Assembly (NCBI GenBank): GCA_963807035.1
Contig: CAWEAL010000006.1
Coordinates: forward strand, 81,994-145,993
Length of the DNA stretch: 64,000 bases
Direction of reading: 5' to 3'
Source: an uncultured Chloroflexia bacterium
Lineage (GTDB): Bacteria; Chloroflexota; Limnocylindria; Limnocylindrales; CSP1-4
Below are positions 35,388-64,000 of the stretch, piece after piece (position 1 is the first letter of the stretch; every line of letters starts with the position of its first letter). A model generated the notes under the pieces. The model searched no databases, was not told the DNA's origin, and was given only the letters and a program-made list of their open reading frames with translations. The position numbers and the translations under genes are program-made.

Positions 35388-36322
35388 ATGCTCGCGACGG
35401 TCCTCTCAGCATCGCTCCATGGGATCGAAGGCCGGCTGATCCGGGTCGAGGTCGACGTCGCCCCGGGCCTGCCCGGGTTCACGATCGTGGGCCTGCCCGA
35501 CGCCTCGCTCCAGGAGGCCCGCGAGCGGGTCCGGGGCGGGATCCGGAACAGCGGCCTCGTGTTCCCACCCCGGCGGATCACCGTGAACCTCGCCCCGGCC
35601 GACCTGCGCAAGACCGGTGCCTCGCTCGATGTGGCGATCGCGGTCGCGATCCTGCTCGGGTCGGAGCAGGCCCGCGCGGACGGGCCGTGGGCGTTGATCG
35701 GCGAGCTGTCACTGGGGGGCGAGCTCCGGGCGGTGCCCGGCATCCTCTCGATGGTCGCGGCGCTGGCCCGCCGCGGGGTCGCCCGCGTGGTGGTGCCGGC
35801 CGAAGCGGCCGCCGAGGCCGGCCTTGTCGAGCGGATCGAGGTCCATCCGGCGCCCGACCTGGCCGCGGCGCTGATCGCCATCCGCTCCGGCCGGGCGGCC
35901 CGCCACCGCGTGAATCCCGCTCGGGTCGACCTGGTCGGGTCGGCCGCGACCCAGGCGGCGGGCGGGACGCCTGCCGAAGGATCGTCCCCCCTCGCCGACG
36001 TGCCCGACCTGGGCGACGTGCGCGGCCAGGCCGGTGCCCGACGAGCGCTCGAGATCGCCCTGGCGGGCGGCCACGGGCTGCTGCTGGTCGGCCCGCCGGG
36101 CTCGGGCAAGACGCTCCTCGCCCGGACGATCCCGGGGCTCCTGCCTCCCCTCGACACGGCCGATGCCCTGACCGCCACGGCGATTCGCTCGGCGGCCGGG
36201 GAGGGACCGATCAGCGGGCTCGAACGCCGCCGGCCATTCCGCGCTCCTCACCATACGATCTCCTACGCCGGCATGGTCGGCGGCGGTCCCGCGATCGCAC
36301 CCGGCGAAGTGACCATGGCCCA
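35388..36322 (+). pseudogene. comM: comM/yifB (Mg-chelatase-like AAA+ competence ATPase), 5' portion only
   Basis: MLATVLSASLHGIEGRLIRVEVDVAPGLPGFTIVGLPDASLQEARERVR...LLLVGPPGSGKTLLAR...PFRAPHHTISYAGMVGGGPAIAPGEVTMAH. The sequence then loses ComM similarity. Confidence 0.85.
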
Positions 36323-36446
36323 TGCCCGCGTGACGTTCCGTGCACGGCATCCCGTCGCCGGGAGCCCACAGGGAGCCACGCGTATGGTGAGCTGCGCCCT
36401 TTCAGGCGGGGAGAGAAGGATGCGATGGGCGGCGATGGCAAGGCCA

Positions 36447-36972
36447 TGACAACTCGACAGACGCGGAGCGTGCAGGTCGTCCTGTTCCTCGTTGGCGTGC
36501 TGGTGATGCTGCTCGTTGGGCCGCCCGTGGCTCCGAAGGGCTTCAGGGGCTCGATCTTGCTCAGCTCGACTTTTACCTCGGCTTCACGCTGGGCCTCGCC
36601 CTCGTGCTCGGGTGGGTCGTCATCCGGCTACCCCGCCAGGTACACCCGGACTTCCTCCTGAGCACGGTCGTCGTGGCGGCGCTGTTCTACGTCGTGACGA
36701 TCGCCGCCACGTATGCGTACCTGGTGCTGAACTACGAGACGGAGCTAGCACCTTCGCCGCTACTCCCTAGCGCCGGGTCGAACTGGGGCGTCGTCGGGAT
36801 CCTCTTGGGCTTCGGGGTGGCCCTCGGAGCGTCCCTGGTCGGCGGGCTAGCGCTGGCCACGCTGGGCCGCGTGCGGGCCTCGGCCATCGTGCCAGGCATC
36901 GCGGCCGGGTTCGGCGCAGTCCTCCTCATGTACCTCGTATTCCAGAACCTGTTCCACACGAGTCTCATCTAG
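36447..36972 (+). CDS. Hypothetical multi-pass membrane protein inside the comM insert, one frame change near 36525
   Basis: MTTRQTRSVQVVLFLVGVLVMLLVG (tail of ORF 35687..36661) continues in the frame of ORF 36604..36972 as LDFYLGFTLGLALVLGWVVI...GILLGFGVALGASLVGGLALA...AAGFGAVLLMYLVF. Confidence 0.5.
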
Positions 36973-37071
36973 AGGGTTCGACGAAGGGCACGGGACCTCT
37001 GCTCTTGGTCGTGTCGGGGGACCAGCGGTCGCCGCCAGCGTCGCGGAGGCGGCGGGTCGACTCGGTTCACC

Positions 37072-38851
37072 TTAGGCGGGCGCGCCGGATAAAGGCTCCG
37101 CGTCCAACCCGGACCGGGTGACATTGCCGAACCCTGACCCACCAGGGCATTTTTTTTCTCGACGAGCTGCCGGAGTTCGGCCGGGACGTGCTCGAGGCAC
37201 TCCGACAGCCGCTCGAGGAGGGCCGGGTCGCGATCGTCCGGGCCGGCCGGTCGCTTGCGCTGCCCGCCCGCTTCCAACTCGTCGCCGCGATGAACCCGTG
37301 CCCGTGTGCGTTTCGACTACACCGGGGAATTGGTACTCGATCAAGGCCGTGGCGGTCTTCTTGCCGCCATCTGCGGGCAGTTGGGTGTCGATCCGGATTG
37401 ACACCAGAAGCCGGACGATCTCCTGGCGCTCCACGTCGCTCAACCCCGCGTCCAGGCGCGTTCGTAGCTCGTCGAGCAGTGGTTGGGCGGCCTCGGGCTC
37501 TGCGCTCGCCTGTGCGGCCCCTACGGCCGCTACGCGCCGTTCAAGCTCGGCCCGTTGGGCGTCGATCCTGGTGAGTTCGGCATCAAGGCTCGGGTCGTCG
37601 AGCCAACCCCGGGCCGCCTGGCGGATGAGACCGAGGCGTTCGGTCGCCAACCGCTCGAGTTGGCGCTCGAGCATCGTCCGCTCGGCTTCCGCTACCGCGC
37701 CCTGGTCGTCGCGTTCCCTTGAAGCATCCAGCTCGGCCAGGATGTCGCCGGGATCACGGAGCCAGCGTTCGATGTCGGTCCAAACGACCGACTCGATCTG
37801 CTCGGCTCGGATGGCGTGCCCCCAGCACCGCCTGGTGATCGGACCACGCTCGGCGATCTGTCCGTTGCACCGGTACCACCCGACGCCGGTCCGCCCCTGG
37901 GAGCCGCAGTACGTCAAGCCGCAGATCCCGCACGTGATCACCTGCTTGAGCAGATAGCGCCGCGGGCTGTTGCGGGTCACCCTCCGGTTGCGCTCCAGAG
38001 CGTCCTGGGCGGCCTGCCAGAGCTCGTCAGAGACGAGTCGAGGCACTGAGGCGCTGATCAGCTCTCGGGTCTGGCTCGTCCGACGGCCGTACTCGAGGCG
38101 ACCGGCGTACTTGGGCTCGCGGATCATGTTCCGGATCCGACCCGCTCGCCAGATCTCCTGCGTCCGGACCTTGCGCTCCCCGCGCCTGATCTCCCGCCCC
38201 GCCCGGGCATAGCTCGTCGGGACGCCCAGCGCATTGAGCTCGGCCGCCACCTGTGGACACGTCCAGCCGTCGATCGCGAGGCGGCGGTACGCCAGGCGCA
38301 CGACGTCGGCGGCCGAGAGCTCGAGCGAGGCCGAGAGCGGGCGGTCGTCGGGTACGAGCCGGGCGGCCTGCTTGCGCTCCGGGACGATGTAGCCGAAGGC
38401 GATGATCCCGCCGGTGTACCGGTGCTCGAGGACGCGCTAGGAGAGGTGACGATCGGAGCCCCGCGGACCGGCAGTGGCTCCACGGGGCTTCGATCGCTCG
38501 GCGCGCCCCCTAGCGGCGGGCCGCTCCATCATCGTCGGGCGGTCAACACGCCTTGGCCCCGGCCATTCAGCAGTGAGACCAAGTGGTCGGAGCCGCGGCA
38601 AGCCTACCTCGGGGGGCATAGGGAACGCCTCCGGCCCTCTATCCCGTACCCAAGAGGCCACCGGAGGCGTTCGAGTGGAGCGCCGGCCTCGGACGAAAGT
38701 CGGAAACGTCCTGGCCGCTGCCGAATTCTAGGCCGTGTGCCAGCCGTCGCACTCTAGCCCGATGGTACCGACGGCATGGCCCCGAACGAGGGGGGAGTCG
38801 CCCGGGGCCGGCTGTGATCGTACGCCGGGCGCAGAAGAACGCCCGGAGCAT
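37072..38851 (-). pseudogene. Large serine recombinase, decayed. The recombinase, zinc-ribbon and coiled-coil domains are intact (ORF 37072..38301). The N-terminal resolvase domain is degenerate with stops. The last ~80 codons are read-through antisense to the comM fragment.
   Basis: GGIIAFGYIVPE..., VVRLAYRRLAIDGWTCPQVAAELNALGVPT, YLLKQVITCGICGLTYCG...YRCNG and a long coiled coil. Upstream relics in ORF 38639..38851 and shifted frames are MLRAFFCARRT, CRRY, GSGQDVSDFRPRPAL and LPRLRP. An in-frame TAG lies at 38448-38450. Confidence 0.75.
37140..37312 (+). pseudogene. comM: comM internal fragment (sensor/Walker-B-proximal block up to NPCPC)
   Basis: Own translation in the frame of ORF 37188..37574 gives [56 protein letters not shown]. 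This is the exact continuation of ...GEVTMAH at 36322. Confidence 0.8.
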
Positions 38852-38857
38852 GGGGGC

Positions 38858-38977
38858 CTATCGACGTCGGCTCAGGATCCACAACGCGAACACGCCGACG
38901 ATGACGACGAGTGCGACGACCGTCAGGATCCGGCCGCTCACGGCCAGGCCGAGCAACGTGATCCCGAGGTAATCCAT
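38858..38977 (-). CDS. Possible 39-aa single-pass hydrophobic peptide
   Basis: Own translation gives MDYLGITLLGLAVSGRILTVVALVVIVGVFALWILSRRR*. There is no convincing Shine-Dalgarno sequence. Confidence 0.25.
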   Translation of the reverse strand: MDYLGITLLGLAVSGRILTVVALVVIVGVFALWILSRRR

Positions 38978-39182
38978 CGTCACCAGCAGGTCTCACCCCG
39001 CCCACCGGCTCTGGGGGGCCGACAGGCGAGGGGCCTGCAGTGTAGGCCGAGAGAGCAAGCGCCGGAGGGCTTGAAGGCCGCTCCGCGCGTCTGTGGCGAG
39101 GGTGAGGCGTTCTGCGCCCGAGGGGTCGGCACGGGCCGTCGTTGGCCCTCGACGGTGGCGGCAAGGACGGATATGTGATGTC

Positions 39183-39368
39183 TCAGCGAACCCGGCGGAC
39201 CGTGGCAGCCGGCGGATGGAGGCCCAGCCTCGCTTCGTGCTCGACGAGCAGCCGCTCGGTGTCCTCCCGGGCACTTTCCGCCTGAAGCCGCTCAATGATT
39301 CGCTTCCGTTCGTTGCTCCACTCGTCGAGGAGCCGCTTCGTCGACGAGGGGCGAGGGTCATCGGTCAT
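39183..39368 (-). CDS. Possible small helical protein (61 aa)
   Basis: The ATG at 39368 within ORF 39183..39695(-) gives MTDDPRPSSTKRLLDEWSNERKRIIERLQAESAREDTERLLVEHEARLG... I saw no RBS. Confidence 0.3.
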   Translation of the reverse strand: MTDDPRPSSTKRLLDEWSNERKRIIERLQAESAREDTERLLVEHEARLGLHPPAATVRRVR

Positions 39369-39634
39369 GGCCAGGATGCTACGAGCCGCGCTCGGGACCG
39401 CTCGCCGGCGATCGGTCTTCGCCTTTGGGCCGTTCGGCACTGTCGCCAAGGTGGACCTCCGGCTATCCTGCGCCAGGCTCCGACACGAAGGGACGTGCCG
39501 CGGATTTCCGCCTCGACCGGGAGGCCGCAGGGGGTTCGGCGCCCGGTGTCGGAGCCCTTTCTCGGCCGGGAGCTGGAAGAGGATCGAAGCCCGGAGAGTC
39601 GCAGTCCAGATGACGCCGAGGGCTTCCGGCTGGC

Positions 39635-40225
39635 CTAGCCAGCGATCGCGGAGGGGTCTTCTCGGCGGAGGAGGATCCCGAGCGAGGCCTTCCACGGCCC
39701 GACGTCAGCGTCATGCGAGCCGGCGAGGCCGGCGAGGATCTGGCCGATGTGGTCGAGATCGTGGACTGCCCAGGACGCAAGGAGCTCGCGCAACGTCACC
39801 TCACCCATGGTTGGATGCAGGCCGCGGCGATCGAGGTCCGTGTCGGTCACGAGCTCTCTGAGCGCCACGAGGTTGGCAGCTCGGAGAGACGCGAAGCGGT
39901 CAACGAGTTCATCGAGCGTGACCCCGCCATCACGCTCGAGCATGGCAAAGCGCTCGTAGCGTTCGAACGCTCGAGACGTGCCCTCCTTGAGGATCAGACG
40001 AGTCCGTGCCATCCAGTTGGTCTGTTCGCCGGTGATCAGGTGGCCCACGACGTCCCGCGGGCGCCAGCCACCGGCGACATCGGGCGTCCCAGTCCAGGTC
40101 TCGGGCAGCCCGACGAGCAGGATGCGGAGGAGCTCGGGCGTCCGTGCGAGCAGGGAAGTTGTCTCAGCGATGCACCCCGCCCCGTCAGATCGCAGTTGCA
40201 GATGATCCACGCCTGGCAAGGTCAA
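39635..40225 (-). CDS. DinB-family (DinB_2) protein
   Basis: WRPRDVVGHLITGEQTNW...LLASWAVHDLDHIGQI carries the DinB His triad pattern. Confidence 0.8.
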   Translation of the reverse strand: MTLPGVDHLQLRSDGAGCIAETTSLLARTPELLRILLVGLPETWTGTPDVAGGWRPRDVVGHLITGEQTNWMARTRLILKEGTSRAFERYERFAMLERDGGVTLDELVDRFASLRAANLVALRELVTDTDLDRRGLHPTMGEVTLRELLASWAVHDLDHIGQILAGLAGSHDADVGPWKASLGILLRREDPSAIAG

Positions 40226-49296: not shown

Positions 49297-49683
49297 TCAA
49301 CTCATTGGGTCGAAATCAATCGGAGACATAGCAGCCGGCAGCCAGATCTCCGGGACCAAGGCTCGCCGGGTGAGCTCGGCAAGAACCCGGGCGTCGATCT
49401 TGTCGGTCTTCGCCGCGAGGGGAGCCAGGCCCCGGACCCGCTGGGCGTCGGCGATCAGGACCTCCCAGCCGCCGAACTCGAGGCTGTCATGGACGAACCG
49501 GGCGCCATTCATCAATTCGATCGTGGCCCGGACTGGCTCGCCCTCAGCGGATACCCGTCGAGCCAGCGTTCGGAGCGCATCCGTGTCAGGTGAGACCGCG
49601 GTCACCAGCGCGGTCGTGCCGTCTTCGCGCAGCACGTGCACATCGAGCCTCTTTCGCGACAGGTCCAATCCGGCGTACAACAT
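49297..49683 (-). mobile_element. IS110-family transposase, N-terminal DEDD (RuvC-like) domain only (truncated)
   Basis: MLYAGLDLSRKRLDVHVL...ATIELMNGARFVHDSLEFGGWEVLIADAQRVRGLAPLAAKTDKIDARVLAEL. It ends after ...EIWLP, and the C-terminal Transposase_20 domain is absent. Confidence 0.8.
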
Positions 49684-55062: not shown

Positions 55063-55302
55063 CACGCCGCGTCCGACTCGCGGTGCGGTTGGGCGAGTGC
55101 GCACGAATCACTCATCGTGGTGAGATCGTCGACTCTCGCCGGTCGTCCTGGACCGAAACGGGCCGGGTCCGCTTGTGCCGGGCGCCGAGCCCGACGCCGA
55201 CGAGGCCGATCGATACGAGCCGCCGACCTCATCGGCTCGGCATGGTATAGGCTGCGCAAGCCCGGCTCCGCAGCGTCCTAGCTCGTACTCCAGGCCCTTG
55301 TC

Positions 55303-57740
55303 TTGGCTATCGACGACCAGCGCCCTGCCGCTAATGTGCCGCCCGAGGGCGGCTCGATCGATAGCGGGCCCCGCTTCCGCCTCCTCGTCGAGCGCAGCTC
55401 GGACGTCTTCTACCGCACCCGGTTGACGCCTGAGCCGGTGCTCGAGTATGTGAGCCCGGCGGCAGAGACCGTCACGGGGTACAGCCCTGCTGAGCTCCTC
55501 GACGACCCGACGCTGTGGCGGGAGCTCGTCCATCCTGACGATCGGGCCCTGATCCCCGACGGCGCGACCTTCGCCGCGGCGACGGCGGACTGAGCTCGAG
55601 GCACCCCTCGTCCTGAGATGGGTTCGCCGTGACGGGTCGGTCCGCTGGACGGAGCACCGAAGCGCCCCGATCTTCGCCGACGACGGCGCTCTGATCGCGC
55701 TCGAGGGCGTCGCCCGGGACGTGACCGCGCAGATCACGGGCGAGGAGCATGTCCGTGCTGCCGATGCCCGCCTCCGCGACCTGCTCTCGGGCATCGATCT
55801 GGGCGCTCTCGTCCTCGATGCCTCGGGTCGGGTCGAGTTCATCAACGACTTCCTCCTTGGCCTCCTGGGCCGGAGCCGCGATGAACTCGTGGGACAGGAC
55901 TGGATCGATATCGCTGTCCCCGAGGACGAGCGCGCTGCCCTGCGCGAGATCTTTGCGGCGGCGCTCGCTTCCGGCGCTGGCGCCGGTCAGCGCGAGGACG
56001 GCATCGTCACGCGCTCAGGAGAGGAACGTCGCCTGCTTTGGACGAGCGTCATCCAGCACGACGCCGACGGCCGGGTCGTCGGGCTGGCCGGCATCGCCCA
56101 TGACATCACCGAGGCTCGCCGGATCGCGGCCGAGCATGCCCGTCTCGCGGCGGCCATCGAGCAATCGGCCGAGTCCGTGATCATCACAGACCCAGCGACC
56201 CGAATCCTGTATGTGAACCGCGCCTTCGAACGACTGTCGGGGTATGCGAGCGCCGAGGTCGTCGGCCAGACGCCGCGAATCCTGGCCAGCGGCGTCCAGT
56301 CGACCTCGTATTACGAGGCCATGGGCGCGGCCCTCGCCCACGGCGTGGCGTGGACGGCGGATGTCGTCTATCGGCGGAAGGACGGCCCGCACTACCGGGT
56401 GAGCTCGGTCACCTCGCCCATCTGGAGCGCGGATGGCTCGATCACGGGGTACGTCGAGGTGGCCCGTGACGTGAGCCACGAGCGGGAGCTCGAGTCGCAG
56501 ACCGAGCAGCTCGTGCGCGAGCGGGCCCTCATCGCCGAAACCCTGCGCAGTCTGCCGTCCGGAGGCGACCCCGAGGCGACGGCCGAGCTGTTCTGTCGCC
56601 AGGTCGCCAGCCTCTCCGACATCGTCGTCGCGTCGGTCCTGGGTTTCGAGTCCGACGGCGCGGCGACACCTCTCGCGTTCGTCGTACCAGGGTCGCCGGA
56701 CGTTGGGCTTCGACGGTTCACGGTGGAGCGAAGCCGATATCTGCACCACCGCGCCAAGGCGGGCCCATGGGTCTCGGAGTGGGTCGACGATCCGACACAC
56801 CCCTATGGCGACATCATCCGGAGCCTCGGCGTCCGCGCGTTCGCCTATGCACCGGTCCAGAGCCAGGGCGTCCCGATCGGCCTGTTGGCGATCGGCTCTT
56901 CAAAGCCCGATGGTGTGGCGCGGCTGTCGGAGCAGCTCGGGGCCCTGGTCGACTTTGCCGATCTCGCCGGCGCGCTGCTCGGGCGGCAGCTCGCCGACCG
57001 AGGCGTCGCGCGACGGATGCATGACGAGATCGAAGGCGTCATCGAGGAGCGTGCCTTCGCGCCGGTGTTCCAGCCGATCGTCGACCTGAGGAACGGCCAG
57101 ACGATCGGGTACGAGGCACTCACCAGGTTCGCCGACGGCACGGCACCCGACCGCCGCTTCGGCGATGCAGCCGCGATCGGCCTTGAAGGCGGGCTCGAGC
57201 TCGCGACGCTCGAAGCGGCGATTGGCGCGGCGAGGCAGGGCGTCTCCCGGAGCAGGTTCCTTCACCTCAACGTCTCGCCCGAGCTCGTCGTCCGGGGGAC
57301 CGAGCTCGGGGCGCTTCTCCGTGACGTGCCGCACCGACTCGTCCTCGAGATCACGGAGCATTCCATCGTCCGGCGACTACGCGGTGTTCCGGAGGAGCAT
57401 CGCGAGGCTTGGCCGCCCCGTGCGCCTCGCCGTCGACGACGCCGGCGCTGGCTTCGCCAGCCTGCGGCACATCCTTGAGCTCGATCCGGCGTTTGTGAAG
57501 CTCGACATCTCCCTGATCCGGGGCATCGACCGCGATCCAGCGAAGCAGGCCCTCGTGGCCGGGATGCGGCACTTCACGCGGACCACGAAGCGCCGGCTCA
57601 TCGCCGAGGGTGTCGAGACAGAGGCCGAGGCCCGGACCCTGGCCGAGCTCGATGTCCGCCTCGTCCAGGGCTACCTGTTCGGCCGGCCGGCGCCGCTTTC
57701 CCCGCGGTCGACCGAGAGGCGCGGGGGCAGCGGTCACTAA
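55303..57740 (+). CDS. Multi-PAS/GAF sensor protein with a C-terminal EAL phosphodiesterase domain, with frame changes near 55590 and 57380
   Basis: Three PAS-like blocks (FRLLVERSSDVFYR; LLSGIDLGALVLDASGRVEFIN; IEQSAESVIITDPATRILYVNRAFERLSGY) and a GAF-like middle. EAL domain: FQPIVDL.NG...GYEALTRF...LEITEH and, in ORF 57165..57740, LAVDDAGAGFASL...KLD...AEGVET...QGYLFGRP. Confidence 0.85.
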
Positions 57741-57868
57741 CGCTCCGCGATCGGCACGATGGCCTGAGGTGGTTGGTCTTCATGTCCCGCGCCCGACGTC
57801 GCTTGCGGCTGGGCTTGCCCGAGAGGCACGCGGTCCATTCCGTGGATGGGCCCGAGAAGAGGTGAGCC

Positions 57869-59286
57869 ATGGCACGGCGACCGATCATGGTCATGGGCTG
57901 CACGAGCGACGCTGGCAAGTCGTTGCTGACGACGGCGCTGTGCCGCTATTTCGCCGATCGGGGCCTGCGCGTTGCGCCGTTCAAGGCCCAGAACATGAGC
58001 ACCAACGCCGCCGTGACGGCCAATGGCCTCGAGATCGGGCGCGCGCAATACGTCCAGGCGCTCGCGGCACGCACCCCGCCCGAGGTGCGCATGAATCCGG
58101 TGCTCCTCAAACCAAGCGCTGAGACGCACAGCCAGGTGATCGTCCTGGGCCGTTACGACGCGGCTACCACCACGCTGCCCTGGCTCGAGCGCCGCGCCCG
58201 CCTGTGGCCGATCGTCCAGTCCGCCCTCGAGGGCCTCATCGCGGAGTTCGACCAGGTCGTCATCGAGGGCGCCGGCAGCCCGGCCGAGATCAATCTGCGC
58301 GCCAGCGACATCGTCAACATGTCGGTTGCGCTTGAGTGTCGAGCCGATGTCTACCTCGTCGCCGATATCGATCGGGGCGGCGCGTTCGCGCACCTGCTCG
58401 GGACCTGGCAGTTCCTCGAACCGGGGGAGCGCGCGCTCATCCGGGGCTTTGTCCTGAACAAGTTCCGGGGCGACCGGGAGCTGCTCGGCAACGCGATGGC
58501 GCTGCTCGAGGAGCGGACCGGCATCCCGACCGTCGCGATCGTCCCGATGCGTCGCCACGCGCTACCCGAAGAGGACGCGTTCCACCATCGCGGCGAGCCG
58601 ATCCCGGGCCGGATCAACGTCGCCCTGCTCCGCGTTCCCGTACGCCAGCAACCTCGACGAGTTCGATCCGCTCATCCACGCGCCCGGCGTAACGGTCACC
58701 CCGATCGTGACGGGCGCCTCGCTGGCCGGCTATGACGCGATCATCCTGCCCGGCAGCACGAACACCGCGGCAGCCTGCGCCACCTGCAAGCCGAGGGCCT
58801 GGCCGACGAGGTCGTCCGAGCCGCGGGGCCGGGACGGTGATCCTGGGCGTGTGCGGCGGACTGCAGATGCTCGGCCGCGAGCTGCGCGACCCGACGACGC
58901 TCGAGGGTGGCGACATCGCGGGCCTGGGGCTCCTCGACGTGACCACGACGTTGGCCGCCGACAAGATCACCCGTCAGTGTTCGGTCGCCTGGGAAGGCGG
59001 CAGGATCGCCGGCTACGAGATCCATCACGGCCGGACCGAGCCGGGCGCACTGGCCGAGCAATGGCTCCCCGACGGGCTCGGTTGGCGGCAAGGCAACGTG
59101 GTCGGCGTCTACGCCCATGGCCTGCTGGACAATGGCGCGTTTCGGCAGTGGTTCCTCGAGCAGCTCGGCTGGCAGGGTCGGGCCGAGGATTGGGCTGCCG
59201 CGATCGACGCTGCGATTAACCAGGTTGCCGCTTTGGTGACCGAGAGTGGCTGGGCCGAGCACCTGGAACGATCGATGGATCGCTGA
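57869..59286 (+). CDS. cobQ: Cobyric acid synthase, with frame changes near 58625 and 58760-58830
   Basis: IMVMGCTSDAGKSLLTTALCRYF...APFKAQNMS...NPVLLKP...VIEGAGSPAEINL...LVADIDRGGAFA...GFVLNKFRGD. The GATase part is ILGVCGGLQMLG...GYEIHHG (ORF 58732..59286). Confidence 0.9.
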
Positions 59287-61284: not shown

Positions 61285-62318
61285 TCAAGCGGCGGCCAGC
61301 TGTAGGTTTGAGCCCTCGAGCAGGAGTCGATAGACCGGCCGGACCAGGCGTCGCTTGAGTGCTCGAATCGCCTCGCGCCAGGTCTTCCCGTCGACCTCGA
61401 TCCGGCGGGTGACGTACGCCTTGGCCTCGGGATGAAAGCGAGCCTGCGAGACCGCGATCACGTGGAGGGCTCGGTTGAGCTGACGGTTGCCGCCCCGGTT
61501 GAGGCGCATCCGCTGGACCTGGCCCGGAGCTCGCCGGGATCGGGGCGACGCCGGCCAGGGCCGCGCAGCGCATCGGCTGTCCGGAAGCGCCGAACATCGC
61601 CGACCTCGGCGATCAGCCGGGCGACGGTGATCGGGCCCGCTCCAGGCAGGCCCATGAGCGGATGGCCCGCGACGCCGGCGGTGATCCGCCGGGTCAGGCT
61701 CTCGACCTCGCGGCCGAGGTGCGCGAGCCGGGCGAGGAGCGAGCGGGCGAGCTCGGCCTGGACGGCGTGAGTTCCCGCGCAGGCGCCGCCCGATCGCCGT
61801 CCGGTTGTGCGTCAGCGACGAGGTTGGCGACCGTCCCGCCATAGCCCGGGAGCAGGATGATCAGATGGGCATGGAGGCGGTTCCGGACGCGGGTCGCCTC
61901 GCCGATCAGATCCTCGCGGGCTTCGACGAGGAGGCGCAGTTCGGTCGTCTGATCAGGCAGCCGGATCGGCGGCAGGCTCGTCTCCCGAGCCGTCACCCGG
62001 GCGATCGCGAGGGCATCGCCAGGGTCGCTCTTGCCCGGTCGTCGGGTCCGTCCGGCGTTCAGCCCGGCTCAGGTGCGGTGGGACCTCGCGGACGCACAGG
62101 CCGGCGCGTTGGGCTGACCGGGCGAGTGGCGCTCCATACGAGGACGAGCCTTCGATCCCGATCGTCGCCCCAGGTGCCTTCGAGCGAGCCCAAGCGATGA
62201 ACGCGAGGTGGCCCTTCGGGTCGTTGGCGAACGTCGCCTCGGCGATCGGTGCGCCGCGTGGATCGACCGCGCAGGCCGCGAGCGTTGCCTTGTGGGTATC
62301 GACCCCGATTGCTGTCAT
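61285..62318 (-). mobile_element. IS110-family transposase gene, full length but with at least 4 frame changes
   Basis: N-terminus: MTAIGVDTHKATLAACAV...IGIEGSSSYGAPLAR (DEDD domain). Middle: LRLLVEAREDLIGEATRVRNRLHAHL. C-terminus: LPGAGPITVARLIAEVGDVRRF...GVAPIPASSGQ...RLNRGGNRQLNRALHVIAVSQ. These are spread over ORFs 61953, 61694, 61458 and 61285. Confidence 0.85.
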
Positions 62319-63154: not shown

Positions 63155-63919
63155 TCACCGCAGCTTCCCCCTGAGCCAGCGGGTCGCGATGCCGAGCGCC
63201 CGCCAGCCCTCGTCGAGATCCTCGAGCGCCGCGACCTTCGCCGGCTCGATGAAGTCGGCCACCTGGCCTGCCACCGAGCGAGCAACAGCCTCAGGTGGCG
63301 GCTGCACAGGCTCGGGCACGCCCTCGAGCTCAGCGAAGCGCACGACGCTCGCCTCGAGCGTCTCGCTGGTCTTGGCCTGCCCCGCCCAGCGGGCGGCGTC
63401 ATCGGGGAACAGGGCGGGATGACCAGCGAGGTAGCGCCGCTCGACCTCATCCCTGGCGGCACCGACGGCCTTGAAGCTTCGCACGCTCAGGCTGATCAGA
63501 TCCCGCAGCTGTTCGACCTCTCGGAGATGATCCGGATTCTTCTCGTCCTCGGGCCCTCGGGTCAGGAGCGCGGTCCGGGTCGAGAACAACGCCGTCAGGA
63601 GAAGCTCGCGCTCGAGCAGGTCGTGGCAGACGGTGTTGATCCGGATCACGAGGCGGAACCGAAAGAGCGTCTCGCGGACGGCCTGGTCCGCGGCTCGGTC
63701 GATCTCGACCCGGGGCTTGCCCTTCATACGCGTCCGCGCGCCATCGGTCGCAGCGTGCCCAAGCCTGTTGATCGGCGGGATGAAGCTTTCGTCCGCCAGG
63801 GACGAGCGCACGAACGCGTCGACCCCACCGTGAGCATGAGCCTCGGTCAACCATGCGACGACGAGCTCGGTCGGGGTCAGAGCGCCTTCGACCGCGGCCA
63901 GCCGTCGTTCGGTCGTCAA
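63155..63919 (-). CDS. Hypothetical helical protein (254 aa)
   Basis: ORF 63155..63919(-). The TTG start overlaps the stop of an upstream partial ORF (ATTGA). I recognised no family. Confidence 0.5.
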   Translation of the reverse strand: MTTERRLAAVEGALTPTELVVAWLTEAHAHGGVDAFVRSSLADESFIPPINRLGHAATDGARTRMKGKPRVEIDRAADQAVRETLFRFRLVIRINTVCHDLLERELLLTALFSTRTALLTRGPEDEKNPDHLREVEQLRDLISLSVRSFKAVGAARDEVERRYLAGHPALFPDDAARWAGQAKTSETLEASVVRFAELEGVPEPVQPPPEAVARSVAGQVADFIEPAKVAALEDLDEGWRALGIATRWLRGKLR

Positions 63920-64000
63920 TCTAGGGCCTGCGTCTCGTCTGCCGGCGAGCGTTGCTTGAGGGCGGCTTCTAGGACTGCCAGTCGATCCTCGAGCTCGCCG
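63917..64000 (-). CDS. 3' end of a hypothetical gene (partial at the window edge)
   Basis: Own translation gives ...ELEDRLAVLEAALKQRSPADETQALD*, translationally coupled to the next gene. Confidence 0.3.

Follow-up and report, generated by a model that had tools for sequence, protein, structure and literature searches.

A probable genomic island with a truncated serine recombinase in comM of an uncultured Limnocylindrales bacterium, and the attachment sites of its relatives

Homologues of the Mg-chelatase/ATP-dependent-protease family (ComM/YifB) are the commonest target of large serine recombinases (LSRs), accounting for 12.4% of site-specific LSRs (Durrant et al. 2022, PMC10083194). The locus described here is of that kind. 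It lies in a 64,000-nucleotide stretch of contig CAWEAL010000006.1 from an uncultured Limnocylindrales bacterium (Chloroflexota), the whole of which is termed the window in what follows, and in which the competence helicase gene comM is found in two pieces (35388–36322 and 37131–37306, both on the plus strand), the second of these abutting the 3′ end of a convergent, 5′-truncated LSR gene (37307–38436, minus strand). Very probably, an LSR element of ~30 kb integrated at the Asn-Pro-Cys-Pro-Cys (NPCPC) codons of comM and later lost the catalytic domain of its recombinase, an insertion of 808 bp (36323–37130) having entered the same gene separately. With the LSRs catalogued by Durrant et al. (PMC10083194) this locus shares the position of the recombinase gene beside its attachment (att) site, a conserved comM-type site, its use by many diverged clusters, and carriage by prophages and islands. 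That catalogue was drawn from isolate genomes, whereas the hosts here are uncultured Limnocylindrales and other Chloroflexota and, unlike the class at large, the copy in the window is catalytically dead. The class to which the window's island belongs, as a decayed example, is well known and very common, and the targeting of comM-type genes by LSRs has already been published; the chief addition of the present analysis is the architecture in which attP lies inside the LSR gene.

Several described systems have one or more of these features. In Wolbachia, the LSR of phage WO sr1WO integrates in a magnesium chelatase gene, the halves of which are found on both flanks, and rearranged copies are known (PMC9203015). 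The WO recombinase is, however, just 24–27% identical to the LSR family of the window; the WO recombinase genes examined do not end in an antisense NPCPC sequence, and the WO site within the gene probably differs from the NPCPC site. Among sequenced phages the closest LSR is that of Acetoanaerobium phage ANDSL2_ph1 (PP197248.1), with 29% identity over its full length, in which the last codons of the integrase are the antisense of AAMNPCPC, such that attP lies inside the integrase 3′ end as it does in the LSR family of the window. Therefore, the attP-in-gene arrangement exists in a real phage, albeit a 36-kb phage of Bacillota obtained from culture supernatant, whose identity to comM extends over ~24 nt as against 8 here and whose record leaves the integration site unstated. 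The Myxococcus phage Mx8 integrase IntP (PMC6070905) likewise contains attP in its coding sequence and acquires a new 3′ end on integration, but Mx8 Int is a tyrosine recombinase and its attB sites are tRNA-associated, not in comM. Finally, the AbaR/AbGRI islands of Acinetobacter, which the original prediction gave as an example of recurrent integration in comM, do share the target, the Mg-chelatase domain of comM being a recurrent landing site there too, for Tn7-like islands and for others, and their presence in comM lessens transformation by heterologous DNA (PMC11472951). The analogy goes no further than the target, since the AbaR/AbGRI islands are Tn7-like transposons (TniA/B/C) that occupy a different position in comM, and are not serine-recombinase elements.

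In the window, the first comM piece (35388–36322, plus strand; Pfam and tblastn) comprises codons 1–312, taking in ChlI, the Walker A motif and the sequence as far as ...PGEVTMAH. The open reading frame (ORF) that contains it, 35388–36449, matches ChlI (PF13541) and positions 1–111, that is the first half, of Mg_chelatase (PF01078), and 35388–36322 is an uninterrupted ComM N-terminal frame, as originally predicted, with 84–87% identity to residues 1–312 of intact orthologues of 522–524 residues (81–84% over the high-scoring segment pairs of tblastn). The second piece (37131–37306, plus strand; Pfam and tblastn) comprises codons ~309–366 and ends in NPCPC. It shows 90% identity to residues 308–366 of the ComM protein P0001 in tblastn, and ORF 37188–37574, together with the bases ahead of it, covers positions 103–163 of PF01078; the comM block that had been placed at 37140–37312 is thereby borne out, with slightly shifted limits. 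When the pieces are concatenated, their identity to P0001 is 87%. Residues 367–522, in contrast to these, find no match anywhere in the window in tblastn searches with four intact orthologues of 522–524 residues, and Mg_chelatase_C (PF13335) is absent from the window, while ChlI and Mg_chelatase are present but split by the 808-bp insert. The comM of the window is a pseudogene in pieces, with no single polypeptide in which ChlI, Mg_chelatase and Mg_chelatase_C stand together, and ComM function has presumably been lost in the source organism. The ratio of non-synonymous to synonymous substitution for the pieces against their orthologues (0.10–0.12) equals that between intact orthologues, and is uninformative as a sign of decay.

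It had also been claimed that the 3′ third of comM is missing, which is correct for the window as judged by tblastn, but appears not to be so beyond it. A ComM C-terminal fragment of 141 residues (P0244) is encoded on a contig of 350,680 bp, and the window's own ComM fragment (P0008) is also on a contig of 350,680 bp. In the reading put forward here, which as a whole is considered very probable, the comM 3′ end lies beyond the window and has not been lost, the position of the P0244 fragment on that contig being a prediction of the reading. The G+C content of the window is ~70%, and its ComM fragment is nearest to proteins of Candidatus Limnocylindrales (Chloroflexota) metagenome-assembled genomes (MAGs).

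Immediately after the NPCPC codons, as had been noticed, the DNA becomes the antisense 3′ end of the LSR gene (37307–38436, minus strand; Pfam and family model), the frame of which is open from 38436 to 37075 and encodes the C-terminal three quarters of the protein, namely the recombinase domain, the zinc ribbon and the coiled coil. Pfam identifies Recombinase (PF07508, E = 9e-15) followed by Zn_ribbon_recom (PF13408, E = 2.5e-9), and a hidden Markov model (HMM) of the LSR family matches with an E-value of 3e-183, covering only its positions 152–554. From residue ~155 onwards the window LSR is 78% identical at the amino acid level to the closest intact gene (P0121, 551 residues), with the conserved cysteines and the stretch from the zinc ribbon to the C-terminus aligning free of gaps. 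What is missing is the resolvase catalytic domain (PF00239) with its serine nucleophile (YxRVSS), invariant in 27 aligned homologues. The original prediction saw relics of this domain, with stops, at 38448–38851, and here it must be rejected. In both blastn and tblastx, similarity with the nearest intact LSR gene starts only at 38421–38427; tblastn with three intact LSRs finds no catalytic domain in the window; an HMM of the N-terminal part of the family (first 165 alignment columns), run with filters off, matches none of the six-frame fragments of the window; and local Smith–Waterman scores, for both DNA and protein, between 38428–39200 and the LSR N-terminal coding region fall within the range of shuffled controls. 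The picture that emerges from these comparisons is of an LSR cleanly truncated at ~38430, a non-functional derivative whose catalytic domain has been deleted and not eroded in place.

Beside the truncation point lies DNA of unknown origin (38437–39634) without homology to any LSR locus. This ~1.2 kb between the LSR truncation and a DinB_2 gene contains no convincing gene and shows no similarity to the fetched loci, its sole ORF of note being one for 41 hydrophobic residues (38858–38983, minus strand). In ~45 loci across Chloroflexota (range L003–L057; for example L087:9771–10004), the LSR start is adjoined by a gene of ~77 residues, without Pfam or PHROG match, the C-terminal ~40 residues of which are conserved. 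This gene is absent from the window, and its product is a candidate recombination directionality factor or regulator.

At its 3′ end the LSR frame lacks a native stop, and continues for 80 codons past the comM junction to a stop at 37072, this read-through tail (37072–37306, minus strand) passing over attL, antisense comM and insert DNA. The feature had been correctly recognised in the original prediction, and it can now be placed in a wider setting. In the alignment of 27 LSRs most sequences end in ...EY(R/Q)FPGVV..T.TGTGSS..., corresponding to comM ...NPCPC translated from the antisense strand, and therefore the genes of most aligned LSRs were called in the integrated state. Antisense-comM tails like that of the window LSR are found on most family members, and the missing stop is a trait of the family, arising because attP lies inside the LSR 3′ coding end.

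The att sites of this clade can be compared base for base. The sole stretch common to attB (L001 and L002), attP (L087, L016 and L030), attL (the window and 30+ other loci) and attR (L092 and L025) is TGCCCGTG, which spans the Cys-Pro-Cys codons of NPCPC, as found when the attB core was sought in intact comM orthologues, and which marks attL in the window at 37299–37306. As for other LSRs with short att sites, attB and attP share only this 8-bp core, while attL and attR are hybrids of the two; the crossover dinucleotide presumably lies within TGCCCGTG, where the crossover chemistry would take place. The P arm of the window, GGTGTAGT..., follows at 37316–37325, and the junctions of the family align base for base from the P arm (TAYCGNTTCCC..GTGTAGT..) through CACGGGCA into antisense comM. 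Unrecombined attP sites, such as GTGTAGTTcccACTTGCAcgggcatcccTGCAAGTcacAACTACAC in L087, occur in loci that have no comM beside the LSR, and take the form of an imperfect palindrome inside the LSR frame, which is present in each of L087, L016 and L030. There the native LSR protein goes on as ...TG-IPASHNYTVLRRVIELPVGR..., and the next gene, encoding a helicase-like AAA_25 protein, has a start that overlaps the LSR stop; after it come genes for a ParB-N6-methyltransferase, a protein of 111 residues (g111) and a protein of 275 residues (X). In a close relative, L092, attR runs from the P′ arm through TGCCCGTG into the comM 3′ part, with dprA, Big_5 and topA beyond. For the window's own attR, the P′ arm predicted is the reverse complement of ...TCC(C/G)TG(C/A)A(G/C)GTC...AACTACAC..., joined at TGCCCGTG. 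In L025, a complete element of ~10.6 kb has both junctions. In the window, attL is present and attR is not; neither a second att site nor a vestigial attR is found there, the core with its arm motifs occurring once. The locus of the closest intact LSR, P0121 (L003/L004), adjoins neither comM nor the helicase module; past the core it diverges and leads into a tRNA-like sequence and a Ribonuc_L-PSP gene, an arrangement which may represent a further variant of attP or else a secondary site.

The empty site is seen in L001 and L002, the closest two of the relatives represented by long contigs, which lack the insertion and in which comM is uninterrupted, with 522 and 524 residues, and is followed by dprA, a Big_5 protein gene, a small gene, topA, xerC and murJ; none of these downstream genes is in the window. 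Moreover, a scan with the 27-LSR alignment, taking one genome per species, returned 79 loci, 68 of which were informative in that the LSR 3′ end was accompanied by at least 300 nt of flank. At 42 of the 68, the comM 5′ part is convergent to the LSR, abuts its 3′ end and stops at residue 364–367. The LSRs at the comM site are 31–56% identical to the query, such that one and the same site is used by diverged relatives, and the hosts of the junction include Limnocylindrales, Dehalococcoidia, Chloroflexia, Brevibacillus, Paenibacillus, Desulfotomaculum, Dethiobacter, Alkalithermobacter and a Thermoleophilia-labelled MAG. In a member of the Bryobacteraceae (Acidobacteriota; L083), the comM 5′ part ends near the same residue beside a truncated LSR, and IMG/VR proviruses of 36–64 kb have the same LSR/comM junction at their ends. 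The empty site, the recurrent junction and the attR of a close relative give strong support to the original proposal of a serine recombinase that targets the NPCPC codons.

Each of two related contigs contains a pair of related LSR genes that point the same way, with a spacing of 33.6 kb on CAVYIM010000007.1 (L013 with L011/L087) and 34.5 kb on PMBR01000117.1 (L015 with L039). The comM 5′ part lies directly against one copy; at the other, and between the two, is an intact attP-type junction leading into the helicase/ParB-methyltransferase module, so that these contigs appear to hold tandem elements at comM. Variants of the arrangement are also found. In a Peptococcaceae locus (L053:5672–7716) and an IMG/VR provirus (L113:10001–12069), a more distant LSR (33–34% identity) has the comM 3′ part, from residue 362–364, after it on the same strand; the site is the same and the recombinase stands at the opposite end of the element. 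A Dehalococcoidia locus (L043:7823–17449) has, besides the LSR/comM junction, a further break within the comM 5′ part that leaves residues 212–366 and 1–159 at a distance of 8.7 kb, which makes it another comM with multiple hits.

The extent of the island to the right depends on genes at the far edge of the window. Gene X, which stands fourth after attP in intact relatives, has a full-length homologue at 63155–63919 (minus strand), with 44% identity over 254 of the 275 residues of the L087 protein X275 (tblastn). This homologue is preceded by the 3′ end of a g111 homologue, cut by the window end (63916–64000, minus strand; assigned from tblastn and gene order), where the match to the g111 C-terminus occupies the final 63 bases of the window with 71% identity over 21 residues (E = 0.006, weak by itself in tblastn). 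The g111 stop overlaps the start of gene X (TTGA), as it does in L087 (ATGA), and the gene order is shared; indeed, the order and orientation of the two are those expected of an element running rightwards from 37307. In relatives, X starts 2.2–3.5 kb from attP, on which basis attR, or the attP of a tandem copy, would be expected 2–3.5 kb past the window. The island is, therefore, predicted to measure ~30 kb, with its right end 2–3.5 kb beyond the window. The intervening 39635–63154 is presumed to be cargo, in which Pfam finds DinB_2, GNAT, an APH-like kinase, an extracytoplasmic function sigma factor, a dienelactone hydrolase, an F420-dependent reductase, a redoxin, PAS-GAF-EAL, a CobQ-like protein, Fur, ZnuA and two remnants of IS110 transposases. 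The G+C content falls from 70.7% left of attL to 68.5% right of it, a drop of 2.2 points.

Several points weigh against a single island of this size. From 38.4 to 63.1 kb, the only matches to the fetched loci are IS110 (49.5 kb and 61.3–62.4 kb) and DinB_2 (39.6–40.2 kb), and the genes resemble ordinary accessory genes of a chromosome, such that part of this region could have arrived by a later rearrangement. Both attR and the comM 3′ part lie outside the window, which makes the right boundary a prediction, and the g111 match is short, at 21 residues. No phage structural or conjugation genes are found in the window, and several of its frameshifts could be assembly errors instead of decay. In this regard, an alternative that is considered unlikely is that the LSR fragment has been stranded beside ordinary chromosomal DNA on its right, the two comM halves having been separated by a larger rearrangement, whether an inversion or translocation that broke within the element or a recombination between two element copies, with no single ~30-kb island. 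Such a history would suit an LSR that is truncated at ~38430 and abuts DNA unlike any element interior, as it would suit the chromosomal look of the cargo; the tandem or multiple LSR copies of related genomes could support the recombination, and in Wolbachia there are rearranged sr1WO prophages with one Mg-chelatase piece per fragment (PMC9203015). It does not readily explain why homologues of X and g111 stand at the right edge in the exact order and orientation of the far end of one element, nor why the G+C shift is uniform over 37–64 kb, and the ~30-kb size fits the 33.6- and 34.5-kb spacing of elements on the two related contigs.

Under the preferred reading of one integrated and subsequently decayed island, the order of events would be as follows. 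A mobile element of ~30 kb would have entered comM in a Limnocylindrales (Chloroflexota) chromosome, its LSR recombining attP, inside the 3′ end of its own gene, with attB at the Asn-Pro-Cys-Pro-Cys codons of comM through the core TGCCCGTG. After integration, the LSR gene would stand convergent with the 5′ two thirds of comM at attL (37299–37306), with its last ~25 native codons and stop swapped for antisense comM, while the genes that follow attP (those for the helicase-like ATPase, the ParB-methyltransferase, g111 and X) would have moved to the other end of the element, by attR and the comM 3′ third. A later deletion would have taken the LSR catalytic domain together with the conserved small upstream gene, and therefore the element would be unable to excise, leaving comM permanently split. 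Separately, a piece of 808 bp, carrying one small membrane-protein gene, would have entered comM 168 bp upstream of attL, duplicating 11 bp of its target.

This second insertion (36323–37130), delimited by alignment to comM orthologues, is related neither to comM nor to the LSR element. It is flanked by a left copy ACCATGGCCCA (36312–36322) and a right copy ACCCTGACCCA (37131–37141), identified by alignment to the comM DNA of L001 and L002, which agree at 9 of 11 positions and both cover the same 11 nt of intact comM. No comM base has been lost, and the 11-bp duplication, though imperfect, suggests that the insert may have entered by a staggered-cut insertion. The insertions had been described as nested, which they are not: the 808-bp insert is inside the comM 5′ part and outside the LSR element, 168 bp upstream of the LSR junction, and is a second, independent insertion. 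Terminal inverted repeats, a further copy in the window and a transposase domain are all lacking, and in these respects the insert does not resemble an insertion sequence or a miniature inverted-repeat transposable element. It contains the gene (36426–36972, plus strand; phmmer) for a membrane protein of ~182 residues with ~five hydrophobic segments by inspection, presumably helices, belonging to a rare family of which phmmer finds six related representatives among 1.84 billion, with no match in Pfam, NCBIfam or PADLOC. The gene is frameshifted by 1 nt near 36563, a single base being missing relative to a homologue of 194 residues (P0362), with which the reconstructed protein aligns from end to end at 74% identity. 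At the nucleotide level, 36320–37006 is 89% identical to a JGI contig (L095) and 78–81% identical to two more (L093 and L094); in these three the gene occurs in contexts other than comM with variable flanks, so that the gene is common to them without defined shared ends. In two peat/soil contigs (L093:749–2171 and L094:1–935) the gene unit is 96% identical, with an indel of 484 bp upstream, and the sequences diverge ~45 bp after the stop of the membrane-protein gene, the unit again being in a variable context. A second breakpoint in common between the 808-bp insert and L008 was considered and discarded, as the positions differ by at least 15 nt.

Since attP lies in the LSR frame, integration would swap the conserved native tail ...NYT-V/T-x-RRVIE-L/I-P... 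for a long antisense-comM extension. A more speculative proposal, which is considered doubtful, combines two ideas: that the exchange of tails acts as a built-in switch of LSR activity or directionality, by analogy with the conversion of Mx8 IntP to IntX, in a clade that spans several phyla, and that the 808-bp single-gene insert with its 11-bp duplication may represent an undescribed, very small mobile cassette.

It is also very improbable that the junctions are artefacts of assembly, caused by a chimeric contig or collapsed repeats in the MAG. Frameshifts are indeed apparent, in the membrane-protein gene near 36563 and possibly in the CobQ-like and PAS genes, and related MAG assemblies often break at these elements; against this, the architecture of the comM/LSR junction is repeated base for base in more than 40 independent assemblies, and an 808-bp insert with a target duplication and no loss of comM is not what a chimera would produce. 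Scarcely credible, finally, is a reversible switch (‘active lysogeny’) in which excision restores comM for competence, as for recombinase-controlled genes elsewhere, for although intact members keep full-length LSRs, the small upstream gene (a possible directionality factor) and precise att sites, and DNA competence genes are over-represented among the targets of LSRs (PMC10083194), the window LSR has no catalytic domain, the upstream gene has gone and comM has a second insertion, by which a switch is excluded here.

In the window itself the outcome is a largely ordinary one, a fixed, dead island and a comM pseudogene, and if ComM works as it does in the bacteria that have been studied, efficient recombination of heterologous transforming DNA has probably been lost. 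The strategy by which LSR elements land in the competence helicase gene comM is the same in uncultured soil and peat Limnocylindrales as in cultured bacteria. The comparative set gives the exact attB, attP, attL and attR of the clade and places attP inside the LSR gene; the two results could help to delimit islands in Chloroflexota genomes, and could also help to select new integrases with a defined and highly conserved target.

Elsewhere in the window, PADLOC, NCBIfam and PHROGs return no defence systems, NCBIfam families or phage families for the window proteins, and Rfam finds just one tRNA-Met, far from the locus. The first of the IS110-family remnants is an N-terminal fragment of 128 residues (49297–49683, minus strand), and the second is frameshifted and split over overlapping ORFs (61285–62318, minus strand). 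The match at 61.3–62.4 kb to the LSR locus L022 is to this IS110 transposase and not to element backbone. A CobQ/CobB-like gene at 57866–59286 (plus strand) is seemingly split into overlapping CbiA and GATase_3 ORFs, and at 55282–57478 (plus strand) a PAS-PAS-GAF-EAL gene with a partial EAL match is overlapped at its start by a short PAS_3 ORF; both apparent splits may be frameshifts, due to decay or to assembly error. The DinB_2 gene (39635–40225, minus strand) has 60% amino acid identity to the DinB_2 gene directly upstream of comM in L002. It was rejected as evidence of a local inversion, its 60% being set against ~83% for ComM, and it is probably a paralogue; its place just inside the island would be a curious coincidence.

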